From Patellaria atrata CBS 101060 (lineage: Eukaryota): a stretch of 64,000 nucleotides of DNA. Below the pieces are notes generated by a model. The model had not been told where the DNA came from. It ran no database searches and was given only the letters and a program-made list of their open reading frames with translations. Every line of letters starts with the position of its first letter. The stretch's first letter is position 1. The position numbers and the translations under genes are program-made. The stretch is from positions 1,143,817 through 1,207,816 of the forward strand of contig MU006090.1 of the NCBI GenBank assembly GCA_010093705.1, read 5' to 3'. This document shows, piece after piece, positions 6,491 through 64,000 of the stretch.

Positions 6491-9478
6491 ATAGATCAAT
6501 CAACTCCTTCGGCGGGGCGATTCCCCGCTCTGCACCCGTCCCAGGCCTCGCCATCCTCGCCCCAGCAGAGCACCTTAAGCCCGTTGCAACGATATAGCGC
6601 AGAATCTCCGCGTGAGGCCGGCACCGCTACCGGATCCTCACACCGACGCGCCACCGAACAGCCCCGCATGCGATCTTCAATTGCCTGCACGCACTGTAGG
6701 AGAAGTAAGGTAAAATGTGAGAATCAAGGTGTGGATACGACATGCGCAAGTTGTCATCGTTCAGGACGGACCTGTCAGTATCCCACCCCAGGCAATCCGG
6801 GAGCCATTACAATTCCGTCACGGAGAGAAAGTGTCATGCCCGGTCAATCGCTGGGCAATACGGTCAATGAGCCTGAGGTGGGTCTCGCGCGCGCTGCTCT
6901 GATAATAAAGTATGCATGTACGCTAACCTTACCTTAACATCTTAGTCCTCGAAAAAGCAACAACGATCGAGGAAGGCGGCTCAACCCGGACCTTCCTCTT
7001 CCGGCTTGCAATACGAAGAAAATCTACTGAACATTGACCCAGACCACTGGAAACAATTGGTATGTTGGAAGTCATCCCTTAGGTTTGCGTTTGCATCTCT
7101 GACCTCCGTTAGTTCAATATCTTCGAACTACACTATTCGACTGAGCTGCCGTTCTTGCATAAGCAAACTTTCCTCAAACCACTCCACAAATCACACTCAC
7201 TCAAGACGGTGCCCGACTATGGCTATTCAAATGACGACTCAAAAGTTTACCCGAAACCAGCAGCAGACGATGTCACTCTCCTTGCTTTCCTGGCTCTCAC
7301 CGTTCGCTTTCACCGGGAATTAACACAACTCCACGGAGGCGACGCCATTAGCGCCAGTAAGATTTATGCCGATGCGGCCTGGAAGCATGCGGAAATGACA
7401 ATTGCCGACTTCTGGCAAGAACCAAACCTACAACGAACGCAAGCACTTCTCATGTTGGCCGTACTTGGTAGTGGATCAAGCGAGGGTAAGAAAGCTTGGG
7501 GCGCGGTGTGCAATGCTCTCCTATCGGCTCGCGCTTTAGGCCTGACTGATGCCAAAGGCTCGAGAGAGCACCAAAACAAGCGCGCACCTCCCGCCCACAC
7601 GGGAACTGGCTTTTCGGGTCACGGTGCAAACGGATCAGGTTACCATTCTAACTCAGAAGATGCTATAGCAGAGGAAATTGAGCGTCGAACATTCTGGAGT
7701 TGTTATATTATGCACACGTATCTTGCGAATGGAGTAGAACGACAAATCTTAGTTCAACCCAAGGACATCAAGATTCAGTTACCCTTGAACCAAAACACTT
7801 TTAATTATGGAAGAAGAGCTCAAACCCTCTTTTTGGGGGATAACGTCCAAGATGAATATCACCAAGGTCCAAATTCCAAAAAGAGGAAGCTTTCAGACAA
7901 CAGCAGTATTGGAACCGGAAGTGGAAAGACTGAACCCGAGAGCTTACTCAGCCTCTACATTAGAGCAGTTGACTTATACGGAGAGATCGCTCGATGGTCA
8001 CTTAGCGGTGGGAGGCGGTACGTAATCACGTATTTAGTCAATCCCGTCCGACAATTTGACTGATAAAAAAAAATAGGATTGATATGGACAGAAATGGAGA
8101 CCCAATTCCCCCATGGACACCCGAATCCGCTTTCTACAAGCTCCACTCGCGATTACTTTCCTTCAAGGAGAGACTACCAGAGAGTTACACTTATAACATA
8201 GAACAGACCGGAGCTAGAGGTGAGGATAGGATTTCAACCCCTTACACATTGATGCACACAGTTTTGGACCTTTCTGGCATTCTGTTGCACAGAGAGTACG
8301 TTCCCTGCATTGCTTTGAAGTGTCCAAAGGGTCCGGAAGGACCTCTTGACAACCCGAAGTTTACCCCGAAACAATTGGAAGGAATGCCGAATGGGTGGTG
8401 GGAGCAGAGTGCCGGTGACCTTTTCAAAGCTGCCAGACGGATTGTCGACCTCTTGCGAGAATGTCAAGAGTATGAGCTCCTACCGGAGACTCCGATTGTT
8501 GCATATGCCGCGCATATTGTAGCGTTCGTCGGTAATTAAAACTTTTCTGAAGTTGTTAGCTTTAATGCAGATGTAACTGACAAACCTTTAGGTGTTTATG
8601 CTCAAATGTTTCCTCATATGGATCAGGCCAAGGCTATGTTCCGAGGCGAGAGCCCATATGGTCATAATTCCGGAGCGAACAGTGACACCGAACCCAGCCC
8701 GGAAATATCAGCAGTGTTAAGCATCTTGAGATACATGGCGCAACGCATGACGATGGCTAGAGTCTGGCAAGAACAGACATTGTTGATGTTCAAGGAGCTC
8801 CGTAGTATTAAGGACAAGGAGATCCGTTTGTTGGCCGGGGGACGTGAAGCACGCCGTGGCTCGATTCTTAACGATGAGGGTATCGGCGAAGGTGGAATTA
8901 AAATCTGGGAAGATATCTTCAGCCGCAAGCTAAGCGACATGCTAGGTTTCCACACCGCCGAAGAGATCCGAGAGGTCGAAGGGAACGGAAGTCTTGGTCG
9001 TGACGATAACAGCAGTGATGATCGCAGCACTGTCAAGAGCGAAGCAATCGATACGCTTCAAGAGTCCTCGGACACGATTCGGCGTCAGCAAGCGTCCGGC
9101 TTCACATCCATCAACACGACTAATGCTAATGGGCCTTCCACAGGTCCGGCAGACGACCAACGTAGGTCATCCCAACATCCGATGTCGCCCGAGAACAGCG
9201 TGCAACAGAGTCATCCGATCGCCGTCAATCTCGTCGCGAATTCTCATTATGTCCCACAACCACAGCAACATTACTATCCCCAAGAAGTTGCGTATCAACA
9301 AGTGAGGCAAGATCAGCCACAGATCCTTTATGAGACTCCGACGCTTGCACAGCTTCAACACAATTCAATTCATTTGTTCCAGACCGGTGATCATTTACAG
9401 GATCTTGGGGTCACTTATGGCGGTTATCTCGATTCCAGGTGGAGACAGCAAACTGAATTTGGAATTCAGCGAGCTTAA
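6491..9478 (+). CDS. Zn(II)2Cys6 transcription factor with a fungal-specific TF middle region; 5 exons; first ATG at 6668, candidate non-AUG start ATA at 6491
   Basis: ACTHCRRSKVKC...CASCHRSGRTCQY binuclear cluster and EEIERRTFWSCYIM motif. Introns at about 6878-6945, 7060-7112, 8018-8076 and 8532-8591 restore the frame. Confidence 0.92.
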
Positions 9479-10750
9479 TCATGATGAGTGCTAATCTACG
9501 TATAATAAGTTCGATAGATCGGTTCTCTTTTTGTGTTCCCTACTCGAACTCCCTCTTCGGAGGTAGATTTTAATATGGCTTTTTCGGAAAGGGGAGGGTG
9601 TCCTACCCGCTTGTTAGGCGTTGTAGGCACTTTGCTCTTTTCATTTTGTAATACTTTGTGTTATTTGTTTTTGCTTCCCTTTCTGCACCGATTGTTTCAC
9701 ACAATTGCTTTATGTCGATATCTCATTTCAATTGCCCACCTCAGTATGTTCTCATTTGAAGACGTAACAGCAGCTTTGGAAGGGCTCTCCAAGATGTACC
9801 TCTTCTCACGGGCTAAACATACACGGCATCTTCACAAGGTGAATCTTAGGTTGAAGATACCTATATTGGTTGTTTAGAGCAGACCTTTCGGATTTTTGCT
9901 TTGGCTGTGTTGGTTGGAAGGGGGAAAGAAGGCAAAGAGGTCATGCTTTATGTTAGTTTTATGCTCTTTGATGAATCGATAGCTGTATTCTCCTCAATCA
10001 CTTCCTCCCGCGGTGGCTATGTAACGTTTCCATCCCTCCAACGACCTACACGTCACAACATATATGGTTCCCGGTTGAGCTTGTTCCCTCGTACTTCGCA
10101 GAATACCTATCTTGCCCACTTCAACATCTTTGCGTAGTTGAAAGACTACTACTAATTAATGCCCCTCTCAAGTGGATATACCTTTTCCCTTCCATCCCCC
10201 CTATCTTTCCCACCCCTTTCCATGCTCCCTATCCTTCCATCCCTTCCCTTCCCCCTATCATTTCACCACTCACTCCACCACCATTACCATGATACCTTTC
10301 CTCGCGCCCCGTGCGGATACAAAACCTACACCCGTCTATCCGCCTCTAGACTTTTAAAAGGTGACGAGAGGTGAAAATCTTACGTCATGAGGGTGTTGAG
10401 ATGGGTGGGTGGACTATTTGTCTGGAGGTGGATAGGAGGATCGTGGTTGCGGTGGGGATAGGGATAGGGGATAAAGGAGTAGATATGTGTGCGATATCGC
10501 ACTGTGCTCTGAAGTAGAGAATGATAGCTCTGATATCCAGTAGAAGCGCGTTCCACCCGACGTCTCAACGAGCTCCACCAAAACTCAGCCATGCGGCACA
10601 CAAAAACGGTCAAACCCAACCTGCACACATCCCATCTCCCAGAACTAGTTCTTCACCAAAATCACACGACACCCACTTCCCCCCGATCCAGTACCAACGC
10701 CTCAGTTTAAAACTTTAAATTGGAGCAATGATAGAGGGGGGCAGTCACCC

Positions 10751-10892
10751 GTTCCGCTGTGCTATAGTGTATTGGATCATCTCGTTCGTCTAACGGATGA
10801 TTTCTTGTCACTCGTTGAATTTCTTTCAGTCTTGTGTTGGGTCTTATTACGAGCGATTAGAGGGCGGCGGGAACACTTTTTCTTTTTTTTTT
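10751..10892 (+). ncRNA. Candidate small structured RNA followed by a T-run
   Basis: Ends pair (GTTCCGCTGT with GCGGCGGGAAC). Internal stems TCATC-CGTT/AACG-GATGA and CTCGT/ACGAG; an oligo-T tract follows immediately. No known family recognised. Confidence 0.25.
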
Positions 10893-13749
10893 AAAAAAAA
10901 AAAAAATTAATTTAATTTGGTGATTCGTTCGATCTTGGTTCTCTGTTATAACGGGTTCCTTTTTTTTTTCAAAATTTGGAGGCGAGGGCGGAATAGATAC
11001 ATATTATAGACCCATATCCGTCATAAATACAACCACACAAAAGCGAAGGAAGAGCTATATCAAAACTACATCGAAACCGACGAAACACAACTCCCCCTTC
11101 CATCATTCCCCCTTGAATCAAACCAGAAACTTCCACGTCCAAGGGAACTACAGTGGAGAGTGCAGCAAACACCACCTTACCTCCTCGGAACCACTAGACG
11201 CGCCCCTTTGTCCCCTGACTATTAACTTGTCAACTATTAACTATTACCCACAAACCACAAACCAGATCCACGCTTCCATCCCACATGTCCCTTCTATCCA
11301 ACGCCAAACATGCCCATAGCACTAGACATTTACGAGACCAAGGAGTCTCACACGACAACCGCACTTAGGCAAATCCACTCCACCACCACCCCATCTTGCC
11401 TCCCTCTCCCCCAGCTTCAGTCATAGAACACAAGCAAGATCTCCGCCCCACCGATTCCACGAGTATGACCGTACACAATATCCCACTACGGCGTTATCAA
11501 CGTCCCACCCACGCCCGAACCGACTAACCCCTCTTCCCTCTATCAGTTTCCACGCTCTCATTTTCTTGGTTGGTTATCTTGACTTGGGGTTTGGGCTAGA
11601 TGGGCGATGGGGGCTATCGAGATTACTGTGAGAGGGAAGTGGCAAGTGGTACAGTATATTCATTACCTCCACTGCGTCGTAAAAGGGAGAGATACCCCAA
11701 TGTCTGAATACCGATGCGTGTAGAGGATCTATGCGAGACTGTTGGGGGGTTCTGCTATGCTGTGTGGGACTCCGTTATCGGTGGGATGATGGATCAAGCT
11801 CTGCGGTTGCCGGACGGATTGATGATGGCGAGTTATTAATCTTGGTCATTCATGGAACTTCATTATCCGAAAATTGGGTCTAGGTACAGTACTACTGGGG
11901 TGCCTTGTTTGCCTTTAGCTTTTGTAGAAATAAGTAGGGATGAGACGCTCCTGCGCTTGAGTGTGTAGGAGGCGAGGAATCGAATGGGCGAGGGTCGGAA
12001 GGAGCTGTTGTTACTAGATACCACTGTCAATATCGCGTTATGGTATAAGTGAGGAATGTGATCGAGTCCAAAGGGGCTCCGCTTGATAATTTTTAGGAGA
12101 ATTCAGGGGTTCTATAAGGTAAGTTTCTCAGGCTCTGATTACCAAAGCCCCTCCAAAATCTCTCATCCATCAAAAGGTAAGGAGCACGGTGACATGTCTC
12201 ATTGGTCTCCCCATCGCCGCTACCGAGTAAATGGCTCCAGACATTGTGATAGTTCTAGCACTATTGAACTACCTTTCCTGGGTAGCGCTCAAGTAGCAAC
12301 ATCAACATCAACACCAACAAAGTCCACAGACACCCTTCAAATCCACCAACACGATATCTAGTCTAGAAACTGAGAGAAGAGGAAAAGAAATGATACCTCT
12401 CTAACCCCTCACCCCTATTCGTCCGAGACATCCATGCGCAATGGTAAGTCTTGGCAAGTTGTTCCAACCTCGAACAAAGCTGCTACAGTACGAGCAATGG
12501 ACTGAAAGAGAAACTGGACTGAAGGATGGAAAAGAGCAAGCTGTAGGACTGTGGATGCGTGGGAGTTAGGTTGGGACCCTCACGGGTGTATGTGTATGTA
12601 TCGGTGGAAAGGTTTTCCGAGAGTATTCGGCCGGGAGCAGGATCATGCCAGATCCGATGTTTCTAGGACCGGTAAAGCCGTTCAGCGGTCTTTTTTGTTA
12701 GGCCTGTCGTTGAGTGTTGGTGTGCTTTGACAAGTTGCCGCTCGTTGACTTTATGGGGTGTTTCGTGCAAAGTCATTCAGTGAAGGAGGAGAGGCCAGGG
12801 TTCTTCGCATTGGCCGATATGGAGGAAGTTTCGATGCAGGAAGGACAAGAAAGTGAAACTTAGAGATTGGTGTGGATCTATTATTGTTGTGAACGGAGGG
12901 GTTTGGTATGATGCACGGCGATTGCGTGCTCTGTCTTGGTTAAAGCAAAAGTGATTCTGTTAAATATCTATTCTAACTGCGTGAAACTAAATGCGCATTG
13001 AGGTGTCTGTACAGACGTTCCGAAACTACCTTCCAATTTAGTTCTCTGGCGGTTCGTGATGGTGTTTAGGCATTGGCCGCCCATTCAGATATTTGATGAT
13101 GTGATTCTGCTTGTCGAATGTGCTGCTGATGGAAGTTGAGGGGACTCTTGCTGCTCTTGCCCCCAATGTTGAAATCGTTCTCAGAGTGTAGGTAACTCTC
13201 GTCCTGATGTTGTACTCCTGAATTTTTGTACACCTACAACAAGATGACTTCCACATTGTGCTGTAGATTTCCGAAAGATAACCTGAGGAGAATTTTCACA
13301 GATCGAATAGAGAAATCCAAACAAGCGGAATCAAAGGAACAACCAGTATACTGAAGAAAGAACGAAATTGAAAATGAAATGACCGTTGTACATAAACTGC
13401 GTGTACAATTGACGAGAGAGCATGTATGATTCCTCCTGATGGAATTCCTGGCTCATCGTACGCTCGTACTGAGGAGATCTCCCACATTTTCTGTACGCAC
13501 ATACTGAGTATCGCGGAAAGGTAACTCGACCCTATAGCATTGCCTGTACAGTACTCGTGCAACATCTTAATAACGGCTATCCCGACGAAGGAAGAACTAT
13601 TACTTAGCAGTAATCGCGGCTGGCAGATCCGAGATCCATCATCTTCAGCTCCGGGCGTAGACCTGTCTTCGATGGTTCCGATATGGACTTCCCGCAAAAA
13701 AATATTTCCCAAACTGGGTCCACTACATAAACTCCCAATATTTTACAAA

Positions 13750-13955
13750 ATCCCCGGTGGCACATTGGGGGTCACGCACGGTTTGCGGCGTACGGCAAAA
13801 GGGTCGATTCCGGTCATCGTCAAGTTCTCTCTCTTTAACCGTTTCTACGGTTTCTCTAATCCGCTCATCAGATATCCTTAGGCCCTGGGAGTTACGACTC
13901 CCGGGGCCCAAGGATGACCCAATACGGTGGTACTGGGTCAGACCTGAGGAATCAA
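13750..13955. ncRNA. Candidate structured non-coding RNA domain (multi-hairpin junction)
   Basis: 19-bp hairpin at 13874-13915 (ATCCTTAGGCCCTGGGAGT-TACG-ACTCCCGGGGCCCAAGGAT), abutting hairpin at 13916-13939 and hairpin AACCGT-TTCT-ACGGTT, all enclosed by GATTCC-GGTC (13806)/GACC-TGA-GGAATC (13953). A long T-rich tract follows. Confidence 0.5.
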
Positions 13956-14053
13956 ATCTACAAAACAAATTTTTTATTATTATTTTTTTTTTTCTTTTAA
14001 ATTTTTTTTTTTTGCACTTGCTATGATAGAACTGGCCTAGATCTCGTATTAGA

Positions 14054-14156
14054 ATCGTCCGGATACAGCACTCAAGAGACGTGAGCTGAAAGATAGTAAA
14101 TTCTCATCGTCCGGATACAGCATTCAAGAGAGGCGAGCTGAAAGATAGTAATTCTC
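14054..14156. repeat. Tandem duplication, 2 x ~52 bp
   Basis: ATCGTCCGGATACAGCA(C/T)TCAAGAGA...GAGCTGAAAGATAGTAA(A)TTCTC at 14054-14105 and 14106-14156, with few mismatches. Confidence 0.95.
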
Positions 14157-17030
14157 ACCGGCCTGGGGCAAGCACCTCTTCCAGACGACATTGCAATTCA
14201 TCATTAGGGAGCATGAATTGCTTTGCGAGACCTAGTTCAATAGCAACTGCATGGATATACAGTAGACGACGGGTTTTTAACTTGTTGTTCTGCTCATAAC
14301 TCATACGTAGAGGACGTCATCGAGCTCAAATGGGCATCGAGACAACGAGATGCTCAAACAATGAGCTGGAGAACCACTTCATCAGCGTAGAGTAGGAGTA
14401 CTGTTCAATAATCACCAATACCTCTCCATCTTATCACTGAGAACCGCTGCGATGGAGATAATCCCCTCGATCAGCAAAATCCGGAGTAACCGTGAAGTCC
14501 AGAAGTCCGTGTAGATCTCGGCCAGATTCGGAGATATCGTTACGGAGGCACAACGTAGTAGTAAGGTAAGACCGGCGGGAGTACCCGCTCGAATGGACGG
14601 TAGACGGGAAAGATGAACATCGATCTCCCACGACCCATAGTATATTTCTTTTTCCCATAGAACCGCTCGTGACCTTGGGAAAAAGAAAGATAAAAGTACT
14701 CCACCGAGTCCAGATCCCAGCTCGGTCGCTCCTCCTGTTTGAGAAAAAGCTCAGCGATAATGGCAAACCGTACTGTAATTCTGTCCCCAGCCACCCCCCC
14801 CAAACCCCTCTCTACCTTATCCCGCGAGGGTATGGAAGTTTGTTAAGGACCAAAAACCCCTTCCAGTCAAGTGACTTGTAAAAACCGATATATTAGATAC
14901 TATAAGCCTACCCCGCCGGGCCGTCCAACCCCCTCCCCCCTTCCCCAGCAAGGCTATTCTTTCGCCCGCACGTGGGTCCCGTAGATCTCCAGCCGTCGGT
15001 TCCAACCCAGTTAAGCGCCCTCGGCGTTGAGATGGTTGCCCATGCTGCACAAGAAAGAGTCTGTACACATGTGACCGTTTCGAAGACCGCTTCTGGGCCG
15101 CTTTTGATTGGAGGTGGAGGAGGCAGAGACATGTGACGGAAAGAATACCTCAGGATTGTTGCTGAGCGGGGTACACAGAGGGGTTCCACAGTACAGTACA
15201 TTATCGCGAGTAACTTTATTAGGGGGGATAGTAGAGCAAGATTATTGGAGACATGGGGCAGAAAGCGATTAGGGCAGCGGGAAGCGGAGACTTGCGATTG
15301 GGGCAATGTTTCGTCCCACGCATTGACTTTGTTTCCAAAACGTCTTTTCGGGTGATTTTTCGAACTCGAACATGGTGGGTGTATGGGTGGTCAGATGAGG
15401 TTGGTTGGGGTCTTTGGGTCACAGTGGTACAGAAGGATGAGGCGCGACGGGATGGGTTATCGTTTGTTGTTCAAGGGGGTTTGCGAAGATGGAGTGAGAA
15501 GATGCTTTTTTTTTGGTAGGTTGGGTTTCGGGATAGGGCTCGACGATGAAAATGGGGAAGTGATGGATTACTGTACTCTAATCGTGGTTAGGGGATACTG
15601 GCTGCTTTGGGATGTGGTTGAGGTGGAGGGTGGAAAATTATAGCAGGTTAGATAGATACTGTGAAATCTTCCCGTCTTCCGCATCGTCCCTTGCGTTGCT
15701 TTACCGTTGTGCTACAGTGACAGAGTCTCACCAACCGCATGTCTTGTTATCTTTGGAAAGGCAAATAGGTAGAAAACACATGCTTACCACATGTAGTTCC
15801 AGATGGTCCCATATGCTGGGAAACAGGTATGCACAAAAGGATGTAGAAAAAGCCCTACTCATCTATCCATCGACAAGAGAGGGAACACACCCTTCACCAC
15901 ACAAGGAAATGCAAGCGTTTCTATTTGCAGCCTCGGTTTGGGCTGCTCTCAGCTATGACGGAGTCCGCAGTGCACGCATCTCAAAGCGTGTGCTGACAGC
16001 ATCAGGATAAGCCACGCCTTCCATGCAGCCCTTCCATGCATGGGGGATAGCACCGATAGCCTTGCATGAACTCTTGTTTGCGCACCTTCCCACTCCCATT
16101 ATTCCACGACTCCAGGCTGCCATCCTTTGGCCCATCACACCTTCAGCCCTATCGCGGATTTACCGCGCGTGATGACGACCTTCTTTAGTGCTTCTTATGG
16201 GGGAGGGAATGGTTGGATGAAGCGCTGCGGCACGGACAGCCATGATCGTGGTTGATATTGTAGCCGATGTCTAAGACATAATCTTTAACCATGTTTCCAG
16301 CACCTCTGTCGTGGGCTGCTAAAGAGCCGGGAGGGTGTAGAGCGAAGGTTATTCTGTGGCATCATTATTATGGTAGATGTGCTGGGCGCTAAAGACGTTC
16401 AGAGCAATTGAATGTCACATAGTCAGTCAATTTGGCTCTTGAGCAAACCAGTAGAAAGAATCTGATGGAAAGAAACCGACCTAGAAAATACTGAGTCAAA
16501 GAGCAGAAACGTCACAGGGAGTTTGTTCGATAGATTTTAGTATAATGCATTGCGCGAGCTAGAATAGAATCTAAGGTATATCATGAGAAAATAGAACCCA
16601 ACCCGATCTGAAGCCGACCTGTGCCATGAGGGATATCCAAAAGGACAAACTTTTTCCGGACCGCTAAACCTGTAGCAGGCAGACAAATGCAGGCTTGAAC
16701 GATGACATGACTCGAAGAAGAATAAGAAAGAAAAACCTTCCTCCACGATGACAAGAGTGAACCCGATCTGAATGCCCTCCGCCCAATGCAATGATGCTCC
16801 AAGATGGTGTGAAAACTAGTGTACAGCCTTGTTGATTTTTCCCAAACGACCGAAAGGGGGGGATATAGATTACAATTGATCAGAAAGTTGTTTGAAGCGC
16901 AGAAGTGGTATCTCAAAAGCAAGTGACCGTGCAGAACAGAAAAAGCAGGATGAAACACGTAACCAAAAATGAAACCTAATCCAGCATAACCAACAAATGA
17001 CTCCGATGAGTCAATCAAGAACATCCAATT

Positions 17031-18278
17031 CTAGGCAGAAGGGTGTCGCAAAATTTCTTCGCAGTTCGCATCGAACCGCATACTCCAAAGTCGCATTCCA
17101 GTCATCATTCGCTCCGTCTTCTCTAACTCCCGGTCACGACCGAAGATTGAGTCAACAAACTCTCCACCGCTATTTTTTCCCATCGTCGTAACTTTCTTGC
17201 CGCCATTCTCTTTCTTGGCAGCCCTAAGCATATACTCTTCACATGATTGAAGCAACTTGGAGAACCTTCCCCATAGCCTGTCACCGCTATCAAGAAACTC
17301 TTCCACCATTTCCTTGTTCTCTTGCTGTCGAATTTTAGGCATGATCTCCTCCGCTCGCTTGATTTTACCCGCCAGTTGAATGAGTAATAGCCATAGCTCG
17401 CCTGACATCTCGGCCATGGGTGTGCCTGCACCGTAGTGGTAGACAGTCCAGTCATATATCCATTTGCCTAATGAGTTGGCGTCGAAGACACTACCCAATA
17501 GACAGATAGGCTCCTCGTTAGGGTCCCAGTTCTTGATGGAATACCCAGCTGGAATGCCAGCGCGACGTGCATCTTCGTCTGTTGCCTTGGGAGTCGACTT
17601 TGCCGTTGATGGTCTTGGCTTTTGTGGCGGTGGCGTGGGTCGACTCGAGTGCGAAGCGCGGCGGGCGCGAGATCGGTGTGGCGTTGACTCTGCCTCGGTG
17701 TAGATAGGAACCTGATCGCAATAGTAACAATAATCAGCTTCCCTATCCTCCTTATGATGTTGATATGGTGGAGGAGCATCGTAGTACAGGTAATCTTCGT
17801 CATCGAAGACTACATTGTAATATTTCTGCGAACGCGATGGTCGATGCTTGGTGTCGCCGGAGAAGCGATACTTCGTGTCTTCCCAATAGCGTTGCTTCTT
17901 CTCGCGCATGCCTTCTGCGGGCACTCGGGAGCGTCGCCCACTGCTCCAATAACGATCAGAGTAACTTACATAGTCGGTGTTACGCTGATGCGTCGAGTGC
18001 TGTTGCGGTTGTGGTGTCTGGTAGCGCGGTGACGAATACGTGCCAAAGGGTGGCACCCGTGGCGACTGAAAACCGTAACCGTGTCCTTGGTCTTGACTGG
18101 AATGTCGCCCGTGTGATTTTGGTGAGGAACGAGGAGATGGTGTCGCCGTGTGTACAGAGTATCGAGGAGAGTAATAACCATGCATTCCAGCGGCAGGAGA
18201 CGGAGACATGGGAGGAGTACGATAGTCGAAAGGCATGTAGCTGGGCGGATGAATCGGATATTGAGGTGATTGGAACAT
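17031..18278 (-). CDS. Conserved Pezizomycotina hypothetical protein (often auto-annotated as vegetative cell wall protein gp1-like)
   Basis: Single 415-aa ORF. Low-complexity Pro/Ser/Tyr N-terminus and a helical C-terminal domain with RAGIPAGYSIKNWDPNEEPICLLGSVFDANSLGKWIYDWTV, recalled as conserved across filamentous ascomycetes. Confidence 0.85.
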   Translation of the reverse strand: MFQSPQYPIHPPSYMPFDYRTPPMSPSPAAGMHGYYSPRYSVHTATPSPRSSPKSHGRHSSQDQGHGYGFQSPRVPPFGTYSSPRYQTPQPQQHSTHQRNTDYVSYSDRYWSSGRRSRVPAEGMREKKQRYWEDTKYRFSGDTKHRPSRSQKYYNVVFDDEDYLYYDAPPPYQHHKEDREADYCYYCDQVPIYTEAESTPHRSRARRASHSSRPTPPPQKPRPSTAKSTPKATDEDARRAGIPAGYSIKNWDPNEEPICLLGSVFDANSLGKWIYDWTVYHYGAGTPMAEMSGELWLLLIQLAGKIKRAEEIMPKIRQQENKEMVEEFLDSGDRLWGRFSKLLQSCEEYMLRAAKKENGGKKVTTMGKNSGGEFVDSIFGRDRELEKTERMMTGMRLWSMRFDANCEEILRHPSA

Positions 18279-21200
18279 GTTGTGTGAGAATGGCGCTCAA
18301 CGACGCCTAGGAATGGTATGAAATTTCAGATGAGAAGGAAAAAGAAGAATAGAAATTGAGATCAAGATATATAGATTTAATTCTGTCACCGATCCAGTTG
18401 AATTCCTGAGTCTGTTGGTGGTGGACGAGATGCGCTAGAGGAAGGTGGTTCTATAGCGGAGGAAGAAGGGAAAGTTAGAATCTGTCTTCCACACATTTGA
18501 TGGTCGTCGTCGTTATTCCTATAATTTTCCAAAAGGGATCCAGTGATAAGATCCCAAAAATTGAGGGTGAATAATGTTAATAATTTTGAAGGTTGATGTT
18601 GAGTTGATTTGGTAATACACGGAGTGAGAGAGAAATGAACAGAAGGCTGAGAGCGAGAAGAAGTACATATGTACCAAGCCCCAAGAAGCGTAAGGGGGAA
18701 GGCAATACCAAGCAAGCGGCCGGACATGGAAGTAACGAGGAGCGAAAACTCAGTAAAAACCCAAAGGTCAAAAGAACTTCCCAGCAATAACCACCTAATC
18801 GATTGCGCGGTGAGGTTGTGGCTTGGAGGCGGTCGCTCCTGCCTCCTGGGTGTGCTCCACCCCTAAAGAACCCCTAGAATCCGGTACACCCACCACCCGC
18901 TCCCTAAGCCCTTTAGTGGGTTACCAGTCGCCTACGAATCTGCCAAAATTGACCATTTCTAATTCTAAACCCACCCCAAAATCCCCCTATTAAAAACCCA
19001 TCCAACTATTCGCTCCCAACCTTCTATTTTTTCTCCCCGACACACAGTCATAGTCATACCCAAGATATCATGACGGCGTCCTCGATGCTGGTAAGAAAAG
19101 AGGCAAGGCTGCGTCACAGACTTTACGCAGTCCAAGGGATCCTCAAGGCAGTTGTGAAAGGACGAGAGAGAGAGTCATCCAGATGTTAATTATAAATTAT
19201 ATGATCGCTGACGCATGGAAAAAACAGGCTCGCGTCATTTAATTCGACACGGCTTTTTCCTGTGATTCTCATCTCCCAACGAGAGGCTCAAGTCAGTCAG
19301 TCTCAGACACTCTGACTCCTTTTGGGCTCTTCTTCCGCCAAAGTGGGCACCACCCCCGTTCAAGCCGTTCGAGAGAGAAAAAGAGTTTCGACACATCCAG
19401 AGCAGCCAAGCGAAATTGTAATTGTCCTCATCACAGTGTTCAGGACATGCTCAGTGCTCGCAAATCATCGGTCTGTGCAACTTGTTTTTCCAATCCGCAC
19501 GGATGGCGTCCAGTTAGAATGGATATCACAAAACTCATTTTTCCATTGGGCTTGTCGTGCCGCAAAAATGCAAAATGCGCAAAAACGAATACTGATGTCT
19601 CACAATTTCACACACACACACACATTCAAAAACCCTCCTGTACCCACAATCCACCACCCACCCGTCCGTAGCCCAGGGCAGGTCGACGATAAGTTGATAA
19701 CATTAAATTGTATTACTTGCCTTTTCTGCTTTACATGGGGGTTGTTGAAGACGAGGGAAGGTAACGGAATAGACAAGTTTACTGGATCATGCTTGCCACT
19801 TCCAGCTTCCATTATTATTCCCTTGATAGCTTTTTTATCATCTCGTAAGCTGTTATGGAGGCTCGTACTACCCGTTCGATATTAAGGTGGACCAGCATCC
19901 AATATCAAAGTCTTGAAAGTCCGTCAGGGAACCCCTAAACGTCGGGACCTTGAGAGTCCTGAGTCCTTGTTGGATGAAAATGCGCACTAGCGTCATCTTT
20001 CGTTCAAGCGTTATGATCCAGTACGATCCTCCGCTGAACACCTTGCACGTAACACGCAACACGAGACGGTCGCGGGTCTTTACAAGTCAGAGAGCGTATG
20101 GTAAGATGCATGCGACCATGCGAGTCCCGATCGTTGATGCGATGTTGCGAGCTATCAAAGTATCACGAACTGCTGGCCACGAATTCACACGAAACACTGC
20201 GAGGACAAAAGCTGATGAGGTGGTTACGACGACCCTTGGTGCGACTAGGGGTATATTTATTTATGCCTCCGAGACGAATGAGATGGAGAGTACAGATACG
20301 ATACCCGCCGTTGGACGAGGCTCCCTCGTTCCCATCAGCTTTTGTGTTGACGCAAATTCGTTAGCCACCGTTGCGAGTGGTCAAATCTGGTCTTCTCTCT
20401 CATCCCAGCTCTGGACTCCTTAACACGATTATCATTTAGGATGTCCGAGCGCACAAATCCTATCCAAAAGCTGGTGCTCGCTGCTCGTAGCACGCGGCAA
20501 CGGTAACTCTGGGCACACCCAACCGAAACGCCGGCTTCAGTCAAGGCAACGGTCATCTTCGTAATCTATCCAACTACCCAAGAGGGCGATAGAGGTTAAG
20601 GATCTCCTGGCTCTTCAAACAGCTGAGCCGCACCCTCTTTTAATTGAGGATGTCTGTGATCCTCTTCGCAACTTTCTTCAAAGTAAATAGGCAATCTCGC
20701 CGAGTGAAAATTTTTTCTTCTTCTCACCGTGTCTCACTATTTTTCATTGGTTCATGCTTTCACTTACCGCAACTTTATGCCCAGTTCTTGCTACAGCTCC
20801 TTAAACTCATCTCTCTTCTGTGCGATACTCTAAAGTTCAATCTACAAGGTCTGTATGGACCATAAGTTGCGTCGTGTCTGCATATGCGGGAGTCTTATTC
20901 GATCAGTCTGTGGACAACGTAGCGGGGCCACAGGTTAGTGTCAGGTTTTGGTGCAGAAATATCGCGACCTCTTGATCGATGCTCTGCTATCATTGGCTAA
21001 ATACGGAGTACAGCCTTTGACCGTGCTGCTTTAAGCCTATCGGCTAGTGTCCTGCAGCCTAATGCGAAACCATTCTCACATTCTTACAGAAGAAGCAGAG
21101 GAGTTGAGGAGCCTTAAAGACACATGAAAATGTCAGATATGGAAAAACTTCGTCTTGTTCATGCAGCCTTCTCCAATGTTATTGGGAAGAGTCGTAAACA

Positions 21201-23655: not shown

Positions 23656-24861
23656 ATGTCCTCTCCACCAGAACACAAGAGCCCGGCCACAGATTTTAAA
23701 ATGGCTCCTATTGATGGAGCCACCCTATTGGGCCCTTCTCAAACATCCGATGTAAAGGTGTTCCCCAATGATACCTCCGAATTTCATCAAGTCCAAACCC
23801 CCCGTAGCTTCGATACAGACGCCGGGATCAACGACACACTGAGGCGGATGTCGGAACCGGATTATATCCTCAACAGTCCCCGCAGCATCCATAGGCCGCC
23901 AACCCTCGACGAAATGGCTAAGGTTACCGGGTTAGAGAAGGGCGAAGCCGCGGAACGGTTGCATCATTTGAGACCGTCAAAATGGTATCGTAGAGGGATT
24001 AAGGTTGACGGACCTGAGAGCTCGCAGCGGGAAGTTGCAGAGAAGGTGGAAGAAGGAGAAATCGACGAAAGCAAATACGAAGCCAGCACGGAGAGCGGAA
24101 TCCAGCAGAGCCTCCCATCCGACGAAACTCCTGATGCCGTAAAAGCAACACATATTCCAAAAGTACAGTTCTCCACGGAACAAGGCTCAAGACTTGGAAA
24201 GCGCAAAGCAGAAGACGATACCTCGGACTCCAACTCCGCCTCAGAGCCCGACTCCATGCCCACAACCACACCCCCACCCTCGCAAAAACGCACAAAAATC
24301 ACATCCACCATGACGGCCAAAGCGCCCCGTCGCGCCACCACTTCCGTCTTCCAACCCCCCGTCCACGCCCCTCCCAAACGCACCGCGCGCGCTCGCACCA
24401 GGAAACTGACCCAGGACTCCCTCGAGCTCGCGACGCAGACCAGAGCGGCGAAGAAGGCCCCGACCCGCTCGATGCAGAAGGCTAGTAATTATAGTTGTGA
24501 TTGTGGGAAGCCGGATGAGGTTGAGGATATGATTATGTGTGAGAGTGGACGGCATGGGAGGGATTGCTGGTGGCATTTGAGTTGTGCGGGCTTTGGTGGG
24601 GGGAGGAGTGTTCCGGAGGGGGAGTGGGTTTGTGAGGGTTGTGAGGGGAGTGGGGAAGGTGAGGGGAGTGGGGAAGGTGAGGGGAGTGGGGAAGGTGAGG
24701 GGAGNNNNNNNNNNNNNNNNNNNNNNNNNNNNNNNNNNNNNNNNNNNNNNNNNNNNNNNNNNNNNNNNNNNNNNNNNNNNNNNNNNNNNNNNNNNNNNNN
24801 NNNNGAGGAAAATGGGGATGTGGAGGGAGGTGAGAGTGAGGGTGATGGTGTGGGTGAGTGA
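23656..24861 (+). CDS. PHD-finger protein with a disordered N-terminus; C-terminus uncertain because of the gap
   Basis: CDCGKPDEVEDMIMCESGRHGRDCWWHLSCAG...EGEWVCEGC matches the C4HC3 PHD pattern. Confidence 0.8.
   Translation: MSSPPEHKSPATDFKMAPIDGATLLGPSQTSDVKVFPNDTSEFHQVQTPRSFDTDAGINDTLRRMSEPDYILNSPRSIHRPPTLDEMAKVTGLEKGEAAERLHHLRPSKWYRRGIKVDGPESSQREVAEKVEEGEIDESKYEASTESGIQQSLPSDETPDAVKATHIPKVQFSTEQGSRLGKRKAEDDTSDSNSASEPDSMPTTTPPPSQKRTKITSTMTAKAPRRATTSVFQPPVHAPPKRTARARTRKLTQDSLELATQTRAAKKAPTRSMQKASNYSCDCGKPDEVEDMIMCESGRHGRDCWWHLSCAGFGGGRSVPEGEWVCEGCEGSGEGEGSGEGEGSGEGEGXXXXXXXXXXXXXXXXXXXXXXXXXXXXXXXXXXEENGDVEGGESEGDGVGE
24643..24804. repeat. 18-bp coding tandem repeat (EGSGEG) running into a 100-N assembly gap (24705-24804)
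   Basis: GAGGGGAGTGGGGAAGGT repeated more than 3 times, then Ns. Confidence 0.95.
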
Positions 24862-27632: not shown

Positions 27633-30600
27633 ATGACGAGCCTTAAACGGTCGTACGTTACTGATTCTTCAGCTCCGAATCTATCAAGCAAAGTATATGT
27701 CAGATCAACGAGGAGTGGAAAAGTCCAAAAAATTGTTCGAGAGCTCTACCTGAGGCAAGATATCCCATGCTCATCTAAGCTGTGCTCAAAATGTCTATCG
27801 AGAGCTCCCACAGATTATAATAATAGAGGTACTTTTCTCAGACGTTATGCTATGACAATCTGCTAAAGTAAAACTCAGTCTTACCCTTTGTGCTTTCCGA
27901 GCGACCGGAGGGAACCAAATCTGCTCCCCAGGGACATTATGTCATCCCAGATACTAATGCTTTCATCTCCGCAATGGACCTCTTTGAGGTCGAGTCTGCT
28001 TTCCATGACGTGATTGTACTGCAAACTGTACTAGAGGAGGTCAAGAATAGATCTCTTCCTCTATATCATCGATTGATTAGCTTGACCAAGAGCGAAGATA
28101 AACGCTTCTATGTCTTCTTCAACGAGTTTAGATCAGAGACTTACGTGAATAGAGAGCATGGTGAGAGCATTAATGACCGCAATGACAGAGCCGTACGAAT
28201 GGCTGTCAAATGGTACGGTGAGCATTTGCAGGAGGCTGTACGGATGCGTTCTAAGAGCGCAAAAGCACCGATGATCGTCATGCTCAGCGACGATAGAGAC
28301 AACCTGCGGAAAGCAAAAGCGGAAAAGCTTGTAGCTTACTCATGTAGGATAATGGACATCATGTCATAACGATGATTTAGCTAACAGTTTCACTAAGTGA
28401 GGGACTACGTGTCAGGGCTTGAAAATGCAACTCTATTGTTAGACATGATCACCGAAGGTCAGGAAGCACGGCAAGGTAAACCGGAAAAGAGTGAAATGTT
28501 CTATCCCGAGGTATGTTATCCTTTGATAAATCCTAGGTGCATTAATTTACAATATCTAGTATTACTCGCTATCTAAGATGCTCACCGGCGTCAAAGCTGG
28601 GACTATGCACCAAGGCATATTCAATGTATCTCCGTACAATTACCTTGAGGGTTCTGTGCATGTATCGGCCTTCGAGCGGTCGCTGTTAATTCTTGGGCGA
28701 GAGAACAGTAACCGCGCAGTCTCAGGCGATGTGATAGTGGTTGAAATTCTTTCCAAAGACCAGTGGAAAACACCATCCACAAAAATCATCGAAGAAGAAA
28801 CCGTGAACAAGGACGATAACCCAGATGAGGAGGATGGAGAAGCTGTCATAACGGAACGGGAACGGCGAGCTTTACAAGAAGAAGTAAAACGGGTACATAG
28901 CAAGAATGTCGAAGGACGATCGCAACCAACTGCACGTGTTGTCGGCGTCATTAAGAGGAATTGGCGCCAGTACGTAGGTCATATCGACAGGGGCTCTGTT
29001 AAAACTTCCGCAAAGCAGAGCCGCGCTCAACAGACTGTGTTCCTTGTTCCGATGGACAAACGCATCCCAAAAATTCGAGTGAGAACGCGACAAGCTGGAG
29101 AACTGTTAGGAAAACGAGTATTGGTAACTATCGATTCGTGGGATAGAGATTCCCGATACCCTGTTGGCCACTTTGTACGTTCCCTTGGTGAACTAGAGTC
29201 GAAAGAGGCGGAGACTGAAGCACTCTTGCTCGAGTATGATGTCCAGTATCGACCATTTCCCAAAACCGTTCTCGATTGTCTCCCTTCAGAGGGACATGAC
29301 TGGAAAGTTCCGGCTAGCGTCGACGATCCGGGCTGGAAAGGCCGAAGGGATCTTAGAGACCTACTCGTTTGCAGTATTGACCCTCCTGGTTGTGTTGACA
29401 TAGACGATGCTCTACATGCGCGACCTCTTCCCAACGGGAACTTTGAGGTTGGTGTGCACATTGCGGATGTTTCCCATTTCGTTAAACCCAACAACGCGAT
29501 GGACAAGGAAGCAAGTATGAGGGGCACAACCGTCTACCTCGTCGACAAACGCATAGACATGTTACCAATGCTCCTAGGTACTGATCTTTGCTCTCTCAAA
29601 CCTTACGTTGAGCGATATGCGTTCTCTGTCTTATGGGAGATTACAGCTGATGCGGATATTGTCAAGTCTGAGTTCACAAAATCAGTTATTCGCTCGAGGG
29701 AAGCCTTCGCTTATGAGCAGGCTCAGATAAGGATAGACGACAAATCGCAACAAGATGATCTTACCAAAGGTATAAGGACGCTAATGATGCTCTCGAAGAA
29801 GTTAAACAAAAAGCGTATGGACGCTGGTGCTCTCAATCTTGCGAGTCCAGAAGTCCGGGTCGAAGCAGAGTCGGAGACGTCTGATCCAGCTGATGTCAAA
29901 GTCAAGAAAATGCTCGACACCAACTCACTCGTTGAGGAGTTCATGTTGCTCGCTAATATAAGCGTCGCAAGAAAGATTTATGAGGCGTTTCCCCAGACCG
30001 CGCTGTTGCGTAGACATGCAGCACCTCCTAAAACCAATTTCGAAGAGCTAGCTAACCAGCTTCAAGTCAAGCGTGGTCTTGAACTGAGGACAGATAGCTC
30101 TAAAGCAGTTGCTGACTCTTTAGATACTTGTGTTGACCCGTCAGAGCCATTCTTCAACACGCTTATCCGGATTATGGCGACAAGATGTATGATGTCCGCC
30201 GAATACTTTTGTTCAGGAACGCAGGCATATTCTGAGTTCAGACATTACGGCCTTGCCAGCGAGATTTATACACACTTCACAAGTCCAATTCGGCGCTATG
30301 CAGACCTGGAAGCACATCGTCAGCTCGCTGCTGCCATTGAATATGAACAGCTAGATCCCAGCCTCCATAGCAAGGCCAAGCTTGAAGGGATATGCAAGAA
30401 TATCAACGTTCGACACCGCAATGCTCAGATGGCTGGCCGTGCAAGTGTCGAATATTACGTGGGACAAGCATTAAAAGGACGAGTATGCGACGAAGAAGGC
30501 TTTGTGATGAAGATCTTTTCAAATGGTTTCGTCGTCTTTGTGCCAAAGTTTGGCATCGAGAGCGCTATCAAATTGAGGGATCTGGCTGTCCCGGAACCCG

Positions 30601-30749
30601 AGAGTACTCTTGACTACGAGAACTATATCTTGACGATTAGTGGATCGAAAAACGCAAAAGTGGAGTTGTTCCAGAAGGTCAAAGTGCGTATCAGTGATGT
30701 ACAGGAAGAGTCGACTGGTAAAAGGAAGATCAAATTAGGGCTTCTATAG
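27633..30749 (+). CDS. DIS3: Exosome catalytic subunit Dis3/Rrp44, 4 exons
   Basis: VRELYLRQDIPC CR3 motif, PIN domain (IPDTNAF, NDRNDRA) and RNB domain (SIDPPGCVDIDDALH, YTHFTSPIRRYAD). Confidence 0.98.
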
Positions 30750-62888: not shown

Positions 62889-63764
62889 TCAGCAGTTGAT
62901 ACTCCTGGAACTCTCGCAACGCTGGAACTTCTTCACATGCACGGAGCCTCCATCCCTCTGGATCTTCTCTTCGACGTCTTCTCCCTCCTTAGGCCTCTCC
63001 CCGCCTACGTACCATGCGGCCGCACATATGATCTCCTTAACAACCTCCAGTTCCTCCTCGTCCCTAGGTGCGTACACCATGATAAAGAAATTAGGCACAA
63101 AGCGACTGAGCCAGCCTCCTTTCGCAAGCGGATGACGTTCTCCCCATCCCTTCTCCAACACAATAGCGACATCAGCAGGGTGCAATGTCAGATGTAAAGA
63201 GCCATCACTTGGGTGTGCATGACAGATCTCTCCATTGCAGGTCAACGCAATCGGTGATGTGGAAAATAGTCCTGTACTATTCTTCTCAAAGCATGACGTT
63301 CCAAGCTTCATTTGGTTATTCTTCTCTCTCGCAAACTGGCTCACAGCATCACATAATTGTTGGTATGCCTTCTCTCCACCTTTTTGGGTGGTCTGCCGAT
63401 GCGGGGCGATACCACGGACCTCCGGACGGGGTCCTTTACGGGACTTCTCTAGGGTAAGTACGCCCTTTTGGGGACGGCAGCAACGTGGGACATTAGGTGG
63501 TTCGTACGGATTGGATAGGGCGAAGATGGAAAGAAATCTGAGCTTGAGGTAGCCGAGGGGTGTTTGAGGTGTACCCCCCGGCCCGAGGGACATGAAGGAT
63601 TTATAGTCTACGTGGATTAAATAGAGGACGGGAATTGAGAGGACCGAAATCGCTATTTGAACGATGGGATTGAAGCCATGGACGCCATGAAGGCCGTCTG
63701 GAGATGAGGATAGGTGTTGGATGGATAACTGATCCCTTGGACAATGAGAGTTTAGACACTCCAT
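62889..63764 (-). CDS. Fungal luciferase-like (DUF5519/Luciferase family) protein with an N-terminal TM segment
   Basis: DYKSFMSLGPGGTP, RPEVRGIAPHRQ, GEICHAHPSDGSLHLTLHPAD...KGWGERHPLA, and MVYAPRDEEE motifs. First ATG at 63764. Confidence 0.85.
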   Translation of the reverse strand: MECLNSHCPRDQLSIQHLSSSPDGLHGVHGFNPIVQIAISVLSIPVLYLIHVDYKSFMSLGPGGTPQTPLGYLKLRFLSIFALSNPYEPPNVPRCCRPQKGVLTLEKSRKGPRPEVRGIAPHRQTTQKGGEKAYQQLCDAVSQFAREKNNQMKLGTSCFEKNSTGLFSTSPIALTCNGEICHAHPSDGSLHLTLHPADVAIVLEKGWGERHPLAKGGWLSRFVPNFFIMVYAPRDEEELEVVKEIICAAAWYVGGERPKEGEDVEEKIQRDGGSVHVKKFQRCESSRSINC

Positions 63765-64000
63765 CGTGATTATCGGTTGTTGTAGCAGTTCTCCTATGTC
63801 GGGTGTGATGGAAGTCAAGATGTTAATCTTGAGTGGTGAGGAGGTTGAGGACAAAAGGTCACTCCAAGCTATTTGAACCTACGTAAGGGTAGGCCGCGGA
63901 CCACAACCTAATTGTTGTGATCACCGATGAGTTTGGGGTACCTCAGCTGCGCTCCAGCACAACAGCCAAATAATCGGTGACGATGGAAGTTGAAAACAGC

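Follow-up and report, generated by a model that had tools for sequence, protein, structure and literature searches.

A strongly folded, hairpin-rich element of Patellaria atrata, possibly the body of a low-copy SINE2-like retroposon

Mg-SINE and Foxy are tRNA-related fungal SINEs (SINE2 type), and for the A box the consensus TRGCNNAGTGG is used. RRYNNRRYGG has also been given as A-box consensus and GGTTCGANNCC as B-box consensus, with the boxes of SINEs usually located at about +14 (A) and +54 (B) (PMC2774510). Fungal SINEs are described as elements of 140-493 bp and low copy number, in which degenerate A and B boxes are accompanied by a 3' region that is unrelated to tRNA and precedes an oligo-T tract, and which are flanked by target duplications of 4-14 bp (PMC5063351). 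The introner-like elements of Dothideomycetes are described as spliceosomal introns in genes, having a canonical donor, branch point, and acceptor and occurring in tens to hundreds of copies (PMC3609843).

The locus presented here lies in a 64-kb stretch of P. atrata DNA of Dothideomycete-like origin, which was analysed as a whole and is henceforth called the window (all coordinates refer to it). Its region 13690-14015 had been singled out in a preliminary description as a compact junction of several hairpins, and the parts named there were all recovered: a 19-bp hairpin with a UACG loop and, directly abutting it, a second hairpin; a third hairpin and a bulged closing stem that encloses all three; a further hairpin upstream (CCCCGGTG-GCA-CATTGGGG, at 13752-13770); a T-rich tract on the + side (13970-14012); and an Sm-like ATTTTTTTG on the - strand, which is present but lies one base away from where it had been placed. 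The structural features are as follows.

13695-13703, - strand: Sm-like site ATTTTTTTG, outside the bracketed element (see below) and without an snRNA family match
13750-13772, + strand: 5' hairpin with a stable stem of 8-10 bp, including 2-3 G.U pairs
13774-13791, + strand: second small hairpin, also found in the other genomic copy, where its loop is 4 nt longer
13806-13815, + strand: closing stem, 5' strand (GATTCC + GGTC), in the block common to the second copy
13837-13852, + strand: 6-bp hairpin AACCGT/ACGGTT, with a pair probability of 0.95 on both strands
13839-13929, + strand: inner segment of 91 nt, absent or replaced in the second copy, where 13838 is joined to 13930
13874-13915, + strand: 19-bp hairpin (arms 13874-13892/13897-13915, UACG loop, one A.C mismatch, one U.G pair)
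13916-13940, + strand: hairpin abutting the 19-bp hairpin, 6+3 bp on the + strand and 10 bp on the - strand
13941-13953, + strand: closing stem, 3' strand (GACC, TGA bulge, GGAATC), in the block common to the second copy

The exceptional fold of 13690-14015 is real and goes beyond chance. The region folds with z = -5.4 on the + strand and -6.3 on the - strand, and none of 100 shuffles folds as well; its core (13805-13953) reaches -65.0 kcal/mol (z -6.1) on the + strand and -73.4 kcal/mol (z -7.4) on the - strand, with 0/200 shuffles as stable. When GC-adjusted folding energy was scanned over the 64 kb in 200-nt windows with a step of 50 (about 1,270 windows), the region ranked first on both strands. 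Predicted hairpin stems are 6-19 bp long; on the + strand they are capped by UACG, UUCU, and CGGU loops, on the - strand by CACC, CGUA, GAGCGG, and AGAA. On the + strand, mean pair probabilities are 0.96-0.99 for the closing stem (13806-13815/13941-13953) and 0.90 for the 5' hairpin, of which the - strand forms a 4-bp remnant only. The - strand gives better pairing in the hairpins at 13916-13939 and 13855-13872 and a more stable inner junction as a whole, by 8 kcal/mol; over 13745-13965 neither strand has the advantage (-87.4 kcal/mol (+) vs. -88.4 kcal/mol (-)). The preliminary description was therefore correct in reporting G-U versus A-C evidence that is split between the strands, with the 5' hairpin favouring the + strand and two inner hairpins the - strand. 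Imperfections in the predicted helices are all of the transition type and are likewise split between the strands, which is expected of inverted repeats drifting at the DNA level and not of one selected RNA strand.

At least one further, diverged copy is present in the same genome, with the closing stem and the small 5' hairpin kept and the inner 91 nt absent or replaced. A second contig matches 13801-13838 with two differences and then resumes at 13930-13958, skipping 91 nt. This copy is partial (only parts of the sequence are seen) and was found in one contig per run in two runs from one sample, the runs looking like DNA contigs; at depths of 317.7 and 420.5, its contig is single-copy, like the main contigs. 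Towards the left, a 30-nt consensus of the left end of the other contig is collinear with 13775-13796 (19/22 columns identical, one 4-nt gap). The score of this alignment was reached by 3/2000 shuffles; the same extension scores as well at two other places in the window, and it is collinearity alone that argues for its placement here. In the 14 kb compared, no stretch other than the element has a second genomic copy at a likeness of at least 90%, and no further copy was found elsewhere in the 64-kb window. At one of the positions where the copies differ, a U.G pair of the - strand becomes C-G. The skipped segment holds the 19-bp hairpin and half of the neighbouring hairpin; since the second copy is without these 91 nt or has them replaced, the large hairpins are a variable module of the family and not a conserved catalytic or binding core.

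The ends of the proposed element were set in two separate ways. The start of the A-box-like motif (13758) was taken as tRNA position 8, which places position 1 at 13751, and the 3' end (13958) is the final base of homology to the second genomic contig. Both ends are abutted exactly by the 7-mer TACAAAA, as listed here together with the promoter-like motifs and the flanking tract.

13744-13750, + strand: left TACAAAA, putative target-site duplication, directly before 13751
13751-13958, + strand: proposed SINE-like element of 208 bp, with an A-box-predicted 5' end, a homology-defined 3' end, and TACAAAA on both sides
13758-13768, + strand: A-box-like motif TGGCACATTGG at +8 of the element, one mismatch to TRGCNNAGTGG and one to RRYNNRRYGG
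13801-13811, + strand: B-box-like motif GGGTCGATTCC at +51 of the element and 32 nt after the A box, one mismatch to GGTTCGANNCC
13959-13965, + strand: right TACAAAA, putative target-site duplication, directly after 13958
13970-14012, + strand: T-rich tract in the flank, with a first T6 run (13970-13975) at which a Pol III transcript could stop

TACAAAA is the sole 7-mer common to 13690-13810 and 13935-14040. Sharing one 7-mer is by itself not unusual (shuffles of the two wide flanking regions share 1.03 on average), but its exact position is: spans of 208 nt bracketed by an exact 7-mer repeat number 2/63,500 in the window, and 112/63,500 if a slop of 2 is permitted on each side. A 5-bp CAAAA duplication around 13801-13960, considered earlier, was dropped because homology to the second copy extends to the left of 13801. 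With up to one mismatch, 20 A-box-like and 11 B-box-like sites occur on both strands of the window, and the only A/B pair with a gap of 20-110 nt on either strand is the one in the element (gap 32). At least one such pair also appeared in 13/60 simulated 64-kb sequences (mean 0.28); as one-mismatch pairs are thus not rare, the weight of this pair lies in its place only. The boxes begin at +8/+9 (A) and +51 (B).

In its degenerate internal Pol III boxes near the 5' end, the longer 3' region unrelated to tRNA and followed by an oligo-T tract, the short target duplication (7 bp here), the length of 208 bp within the size range of SINEs, and the apparently low copy number with indels between copies, the element resembles fungal SINE2 elements such as AfuSINE2 of Aspergillus fumigatus, as these are described in PMC5063351. 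It differs from them in having neither a tRNA cloverleaf in its head nor an A-rich or trinucleotide-repeat tail, and in a body that is far more structured than its surroundings, forming a five-helix junction with the 19-bp hairpin. ARAGORN called no tRNA gene in the element at default, -ps, or -ps80 settings, its calls at -ps70 and -ps60 were mutually inconsistent, and the Rfam tRNA model did not match the element at E-values up to 10; the head may be too decayed, or not of tRNA origin. Inspection of 13940-13958 on the + strand gave no A-rich or simple-repeat tail. The T6 run at 13970-13975 sits 12 nt past the element, and 13751-13958 contains no run of four or more T on the + strand, which is compatible with Pol III transcription.

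On this evidence, the multi-hairpin junction is tentatively regarded as the body of a 208-bp non-autonomous, low-copy retroposon with a tRNA-type promoter (SINE2-like), on the + strand at 13751-13958; we hold this at somewhat less than an even chance. RNA polymerase III, guided by the internal A box (+8) and B box (+51), would begin transcription near 13751, would pass through the hairpin-rich body, and would halt at the T-run 13970-13975 in the flank, releasing an RNA of about 225 nt. A LINE-encoded reverse transcriptase/endonuclease would then return a copy of this RNA to the genome and leave the 7-bp TACAAAA target duplication; transcription, mobilisation, and the LINE partner are steps that we infer. 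The structure may well exist as RNA, namely as the Pol III transcript of the retroposon.

The element is situated in a stretch of about 7.5-7.7 kb without a credible gene (9400-17100), and the insertion spot is A/T-rich. None of the 76 ORFs of at least 50 aa in 9400-17100 reached the Pfam cut-off. A 148-aa ORF adjoining the element, for which no relative was found among 1.84 billion representatives, was not counted as a gene. A flanking 421-aa protein has its nearest foreign relatives at 57-64% identity, and at this distance orthologous intergenic DNA would probably not align. Around the element, no strong signature of RIP (repeat-induced point mutation) was seen. BLAST gave no repeats shared by the gene-free stretch with the remainder of the window; as it drops hits nested in a self-match, repeats within the gene-free stretch were judged by a separate comparison. 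A 15-nt inverted pair (13256-13270/13954-13968) was judged to be due to chance, a rough estimate being about four such pairs per 3 kb. The run contigs have loose ends at 12849 and 20761, which we take to be library linker sequence and not repeats.

Relatives were sought in RNA family, nucleotide, and protein collections. No Rfam family matches the region; the 19-bp hairpin gave generic hairpin matches only, far below the gathering score. Metagenome contigs were queried with an 81-aa read-through of the element, yielding at least 595 pattern matches; among the matches listed, one (L001) passes tblastn and is, judged by eye, an unrelated GC-rich contig. The same read-through returned no candidate from the protein database. 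A 19-mer of the B-box block has 30 exact matches in prokaryote genome contigs, all in unrelated GC-rich contexts, with flanks identical to the window at 18-31/100 positions and no tRNA genes at the 16/30 loci examined; the matches are attributed to chance. A 21-mer of the long hairpin had no matches in viral contigs.

Several known RNA classes had to be weighed against the retroposon. A segment of telomerase RNA (its three-way junction domain), as proposed in the preliminary description, would account for a multi-helix junction in a long non-coding stretch and for the U-rich Sm-like site on the - strand. Telomeres of Dothideomycetes are of the TTAGGG type; with this type assumed for the present species, about 1.5 telomere repeats were sought as a 10-mer template with up to one mismatch, giving three matches in the window (shuffle mean 2.9) and none in the gene-free stretch 9400-17100; TTAGGG hexamers occur only in isolation. 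P6.1 of Pezizomycotina telomerase RNA is described as a 4-bp stem with a 5-nt NUNGN loop (PMC3592445), and no hairpin of this form is present; Rfam gave no hit at E-values up to 10 over 7.7 kb, and we assign telomerase RNA almost no probability. Scarcely more credible is a self-cleaving ribozyme or the endogenised fragment of a viroid-like element or RNA virus, an endogenised replicon having also been suggested earlier. In hammerheads, helix II joins CUGANGA and GAAA cores, and helices I and III surround a UH cleavage site. Of these parts, the - strand has a CUGAUGA (13871-13865), then GAAAC, and next a hairpin that might act as helix III; by eye, however, no helix II can be made from the 10 nt separating CUGAUGA from GAA, and helix I is unpaired. 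Hammerhead, twister, HDV-like, and other ribozyme families gave no match at E-values up to 10, even in a search limited to 381 nt, the ORFs tested against Pfam include no polymerase and none is RdRp-like, and the viral contigs were without matches to the 21-mer of the long hairpin. The region shares several hairpins within a closing helix and a U-rich Sm-like site downstream on the - strand with the U1-type snRNA cloverleaf, from which it differs in that the Sm-like site is outside the bracketed element. The element also lacks the 5' splice-site-recognition sequence and the conserved loop sequences of U1. An Sm-class snRNA (U1, U2, U4, U5) was rejected, with no Rfam match at gathering score in the window and none at E-values up to 10 in 3 kb or 381 nt. 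Introner-like elements are described as repeated and as having a longer and much stabler predicted structure than ordinary non-coding sequence (PMC3609843), which the element has in common with them, as it does the fungal class; this assignment was likewise discarded, as none of three candidate donor/acceptor pairs spans the structure and there is no surrounding gene.

The remaining alternatives concern what kind of locus would carry such a fold. Nested inverted repeats at the DNA level, neither mobile nor functional as RNA, could have arisen, for example, by template-switch or inverted-duplication events in a gene-poor stretch rich in A/T tracts, the second copy then being a small segmental duplication. 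The near-equal folding of both strands and the strand-split transitions in the helices are in line with this, as is the hairpin at 13916-13940, whose arms are divided between the shared block and the 91-nt indel, as an inverted duplication of a flank would give. Such an origin leaves unexplained the box pair at SINE-typical positions and the exact 7-bp bracket at independently predicted ends, and several independent palindromes within a closing stem are not expected of single events; we consider it unlikely. Far less probable is a MITE (class II DNA transposon) with the closing stem as its terminal inverted repeats. The strong fold-back, the internal indel of the second copy, and the known presence of short repeated elements in Dothideomycete genomes, described in PMC3609843, suit a MITE, but the arms of the closing stem are set back from the bracketed ends by 55 nt and 5 nt and are therefore not terminal. 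This internal stem is the only inverted pair; the ends of 13751-13958, compared by eye, are not inverted repeats, as suits a retroposon better than a DNA transposon. In addition, homology to the second copy extends to the left of the stem, the stem itself has no flanking duplication, and there is no transposase-like ORF nearby. Membership of a DNA transposon or MITE had been named in the preliminary description as an outcome against its own interpretation; a mobile element is indeed what we lean towards, with the reserve stated above, in the form of a retroposon and not of a DNA transposon or MITE. A structured, lineage-specific ncRNA gene with at least one paralogue, its closing stem conserved and the five-way junction an expansion, has a rather low probability. 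It could be transcribed either by Pol III from the + strand via the A/B boxes or from the - strand, from after the A-rich tract to the U7 run at 13696-13702. The exceptional fold speaks for it, as do the retention of the closing stem and the small hairpin in the second copy despite a different loop length, the U.G to C-G difference between copies on the - strand, the UACG loop on the + strand, and the T-runs that follow on both strands, neither of which contains an internal T5 run. Against it stand the lack of an Rfam family match, contradictory strand evidence, the largest hairpins being dispensable in the second copy, and the lack of a homologue in the metagenome, prokaryote, viral, and protein collections searched; such a gene would also require the exact 7-bp bracket to be coincidental, or would itself be a retro-copy. 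Of the novel ncRNA proposed earlier, the real and exceptional fold stands, and the features fit a mobile element better.

BC1 and 7SL also seed retroposons. By analogy, though we think it quite improbable, the element might belong to a lineage-specific, structured Pol III RNA with a cellular role, as its master copy or as a retro-copy; the five-helix junction of this RNA would act as a protein-binding platform, and the family would stem from a poorly sampled Dothideomycete lineage. As a SINE2-like retroposon, the element opens no new RNA class, and it serves as a caution: where intergenic DNA folds with very strong z-scores, the body of a mobile element can be the source. If the assignment is true, a low-copy SINE-like family not described before would be added to the few SINEs documented in fungi, from a Dothideomycete lineage that is poorly sampled, and its body would stand out as unusually rigid and hairpin-rich, with a variable module of 91 nt. 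Such a family would help in annotating repeats and would illustrate how retroposon bodies acquire structure.

The segment 13751-13958 (+ strand, 208 bp) is tentatively read as a SINE-like retroposon with a hairpin junction as its body, since Pol III promoter boxes, a bracketing direct repeat, a second copy and the ends together fit the definition of fungal tRNA-related SINEs. These are described in excerpts of PMC5063351 as low-copy elements of 140-493 bp with target duplications of 4-14 bp, whose A and B boxes are degenerate and whose tRNA-unrelated region precedes an oligo-T tract. The features listed in the preliminary description (hairpins, closing stem, T-rich tract, Sm-like site) were all present in the sequence:

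13695-13703, - strand: ATTTTTTTG, previously described as an Sm-like site
13752-13770: upstream (5') hairpin
13806-13815 with 13941-13953: bulged closing stem
13837-13852: hairpin of 6 bp
13874-13892 with 13897-13915, + strand: hairpin of 19 bp with a UACG loop, one A.C mismatch and one U.G pair
13916-13940: hairpin adjoining the 19-bp hairpin
from 13970: T-rich tract

The fold of 13690-14015 was far beyond chance, with z-scores of -5.4 (+) and -6.3 (-) and 0 of 100 shuffles equally stable, and the region ranked first on both strands when the whole window was folded in 200-nt windows with a 50-nt step and G+C correction. The core (13805-13953) reached -65.0 kcal/mol on the + strand (z -6.1) and -73.4 kcal/mol on the - strand (z -7.4), each with 0/200 shuffles equally stable, and over 13745-13965 the strands were equal in stability (-87.4 vs -88.4 kcal/mol). 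As noted before, wobble-versus-mismatch evidence was split by strand: the 5' hairpin requires the + strand, and two inner hairpins are better paired on the - strand. Within 13790-13928, the pentamer TACGG occurred three times (at 13791, 13847 and 13923) and TACGA once, in the long hairpin's loop (rough expectation for a given pentamer, ~0.3 occurrences in 326 nt); several CGG/CCG triplets in the same stretch have a spacing that may resemble zinc-cluster factor sites.

Both strands of the window were scanned for Pol III boxes using an 11-nt A-box consensus and a B-box consensus, allowing up to one mismatch per consensus. The latter was taken from an excerpt of PMC2774510, which places SINE A and B boxes at about +14 and +54. 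The scan returned 20 A-like and 11 B-like sites, and just one A/B pair was spaced 20-110 nt apart; it lay on the + strand inside 13690-14015, with the A box at 13758, the B box at 13801 and 32 nt between them. Finding such a pair somewhere is not unusual: 13 of 60 simulated 64-kb sequences contained at least one (mean 0.28). Its weight comes from its location, not its occurrence. With the A box taken as tRNA position 8 at 13758, position 1 therefore falls at 13751. Direct repeats were sought, without prior choice, between 13690-13810 and 13935-14040, and the single 7-mer common to both flanks was TACAAAA (13744-13750 and 13959-13965), one being as expected from shuffles (mean 1.03). The left copy ends at 13750, directly next to the A-box-derived 5' end (13751), and the right copy begins one base past the last base of homology with the second copy (13958). 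Across the whole window, 2/63,500 spans of 208 nt were bracketed in this way exactly and 112/63,500 with two-base slop on each side. A T6 run (13970-13975) lies downstream, and no run of four T occurs inside 13751-13958.

Contigs from two runs of one sample, DNA-like in appearance, were placed on 7000-21000 (14 kb), which was single-copy except for low-complexity tracts, where contigs broke, and a second copy of the element. One other contig per run matched 13801-13838 with two differences and then 13930-13958, skipping 91 nt, at depths of 317.7 and 420.5, comparable to the main contigs; only the matched blocks were located in it, the 91 nt being either absent or replaced by other letters. The 30 letters to its left of 13801 aligned collinearly and without offset to 13775-13796 (19 of 22 columns identical, a 4-nt gap in the hairpin loop), a score reached by 3 of 2000 shuffles. 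Because two unrelated places in the window scored equally, this extension rests on collinearity. The small hairpin of this region can form in both copies, with one difference: the other copy has a C-G pair where the window copy is mismatched (C.A) on the + strand or wobble-paired (U.G) on the - strand. The closing stem and small hairpin are thus common to both copies and the large hairpins within the 91 nt are not. By these alignments, the element belongs to a family with at least two diverged members. Contigs of run X1 ended with loose ends at 12820-12849 and 20732-20761, a run artefact and not a genome feature, which we take to resemble mate-pair library linker. Contigs of the runs also broke at poly(dT)/poly(dA) tracts (10873-10922, partly palindromic, and 19598-19634) and at 13964-14015.

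The window is fungal, with Fungal_trans, Rrp44/Dis3 (exonuclease, 28560-30746, +), HMG-box and other eukaryotic domains on long ORFs; a Luciferase domain (PF17648, E 1.3e-25) lies on an ORF at 62892-63878 (-), and an assembly gap of 100 N (24705-24804) within a 430-aa ORF region. A flanking 421-aa ORF (17034-18296, -) had 1,700 relatives at E <=1e-10 among 4,304 candidates; among the best 120 of these, named matches were nearly all Dothideomycetes or lichen-forming ascomycetes (e.g., Cryomyces, 60% identity; Mytilinidion, 63%). As the best foreign match reached 64% identity, the lineage is isolated and orthologous intergenic DNA is probably not alignable. The element sits in a 7.5-kb stretch (9478-17031) flanked by two convergent genes, in which no ORF of >170 aa and no strong RIP signature were found, and 0 of 76 ORFs of >=50 aa reached the Pfam cut-off (best E-value 0.0045). 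A 148-aa ORF next to the element, overlapping the left edge, had no relatives among 1.84 billion representative proteins. This gene-free length, with neither Pfam at cut-off nor Rfam match, is unusual for a compact ascomycete genome. It also holds a tandem direct repeat right of the T-rich tract (14054-14151; two 46-nt copies, 93% identical, period 52 nt), which has the 8-mer TCATCGTC in common with 13814-13821, possibly by chance; an inverted repeat at 14641-14692 (17 nt, 94% complementary, 18-nt spacer; TATATTTCTTTTTCCCA / TGGGAAAAAGAAAGATA); and, at 14415-15470, minus-strand ORFs that overlap across the three frames, perhaps a composition effect.

No Rfam family reached its gathering score anywhere in the window, and over 9400-17100 there was no match even at E <=10; searches with 3 kb and 381 nt returned generic hairpin look-alikes only (e.g., HIV_FS2 and two miRNA precursors), which scored 13-20 bits where the cut-offs are 44-90. 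ARAGORN found no tRNA in the window, and searches of protein, metagenome, prokaryote-genome and viral collections yielded no homologue. A stand-alone ncRNA gene family, which would be consistent with a closing stem conserved around an insert that varies and with the one half-compensatory difference between copies, is considered unlikely. Likewise doubtful is a non-mobile cluster of inverted duplications, which is compatible with the strand symmetry of the fold and with hairpin 13916-13940, whose two arms are divided between the common block and the indel. A MITE is improbable: the inverted pair is internal, not terminal, and comparison of the ends of 13751-13958 gave no terminal inverted repeats. 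The - strand carries CUGAUGA and GAAAC, reminiscent of a hammerhead or a viroid-like element, yet neither helix I nor helix II is able to form and Rfam ribozyme families gave no match, leaving very little probability for such an origin. Telomerase RNA, failing on both template and P6.1, has next to none. The earlier interpretation is partly supported, as an RNA form of the structure is possible; its specific class readings (telomerase RNA, RNA replicon) are not supported. Introner-like elements, known from Dothideomycetes and noted for stable structure (PMC3609843), were also considered and rejected; the element has no enclosing pair of splice sites and does not lie within a gene.

Against a SINE-like retroposon stand a head without tRNA cloverleaf, the absent A-rich tail, the single further copy, partly seen, and the greater stability of the inner junction on the - strand. 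By analogy with known SINEs, the element would be transcribed by Pol III, its RNA would be reverse-transcribed by a LINE enzyme, and insertion would occur into an A/T-rich target. In the best reading, held with somewhat less than even confidence, it may represent a new low-copy member of an established mobile-element type.
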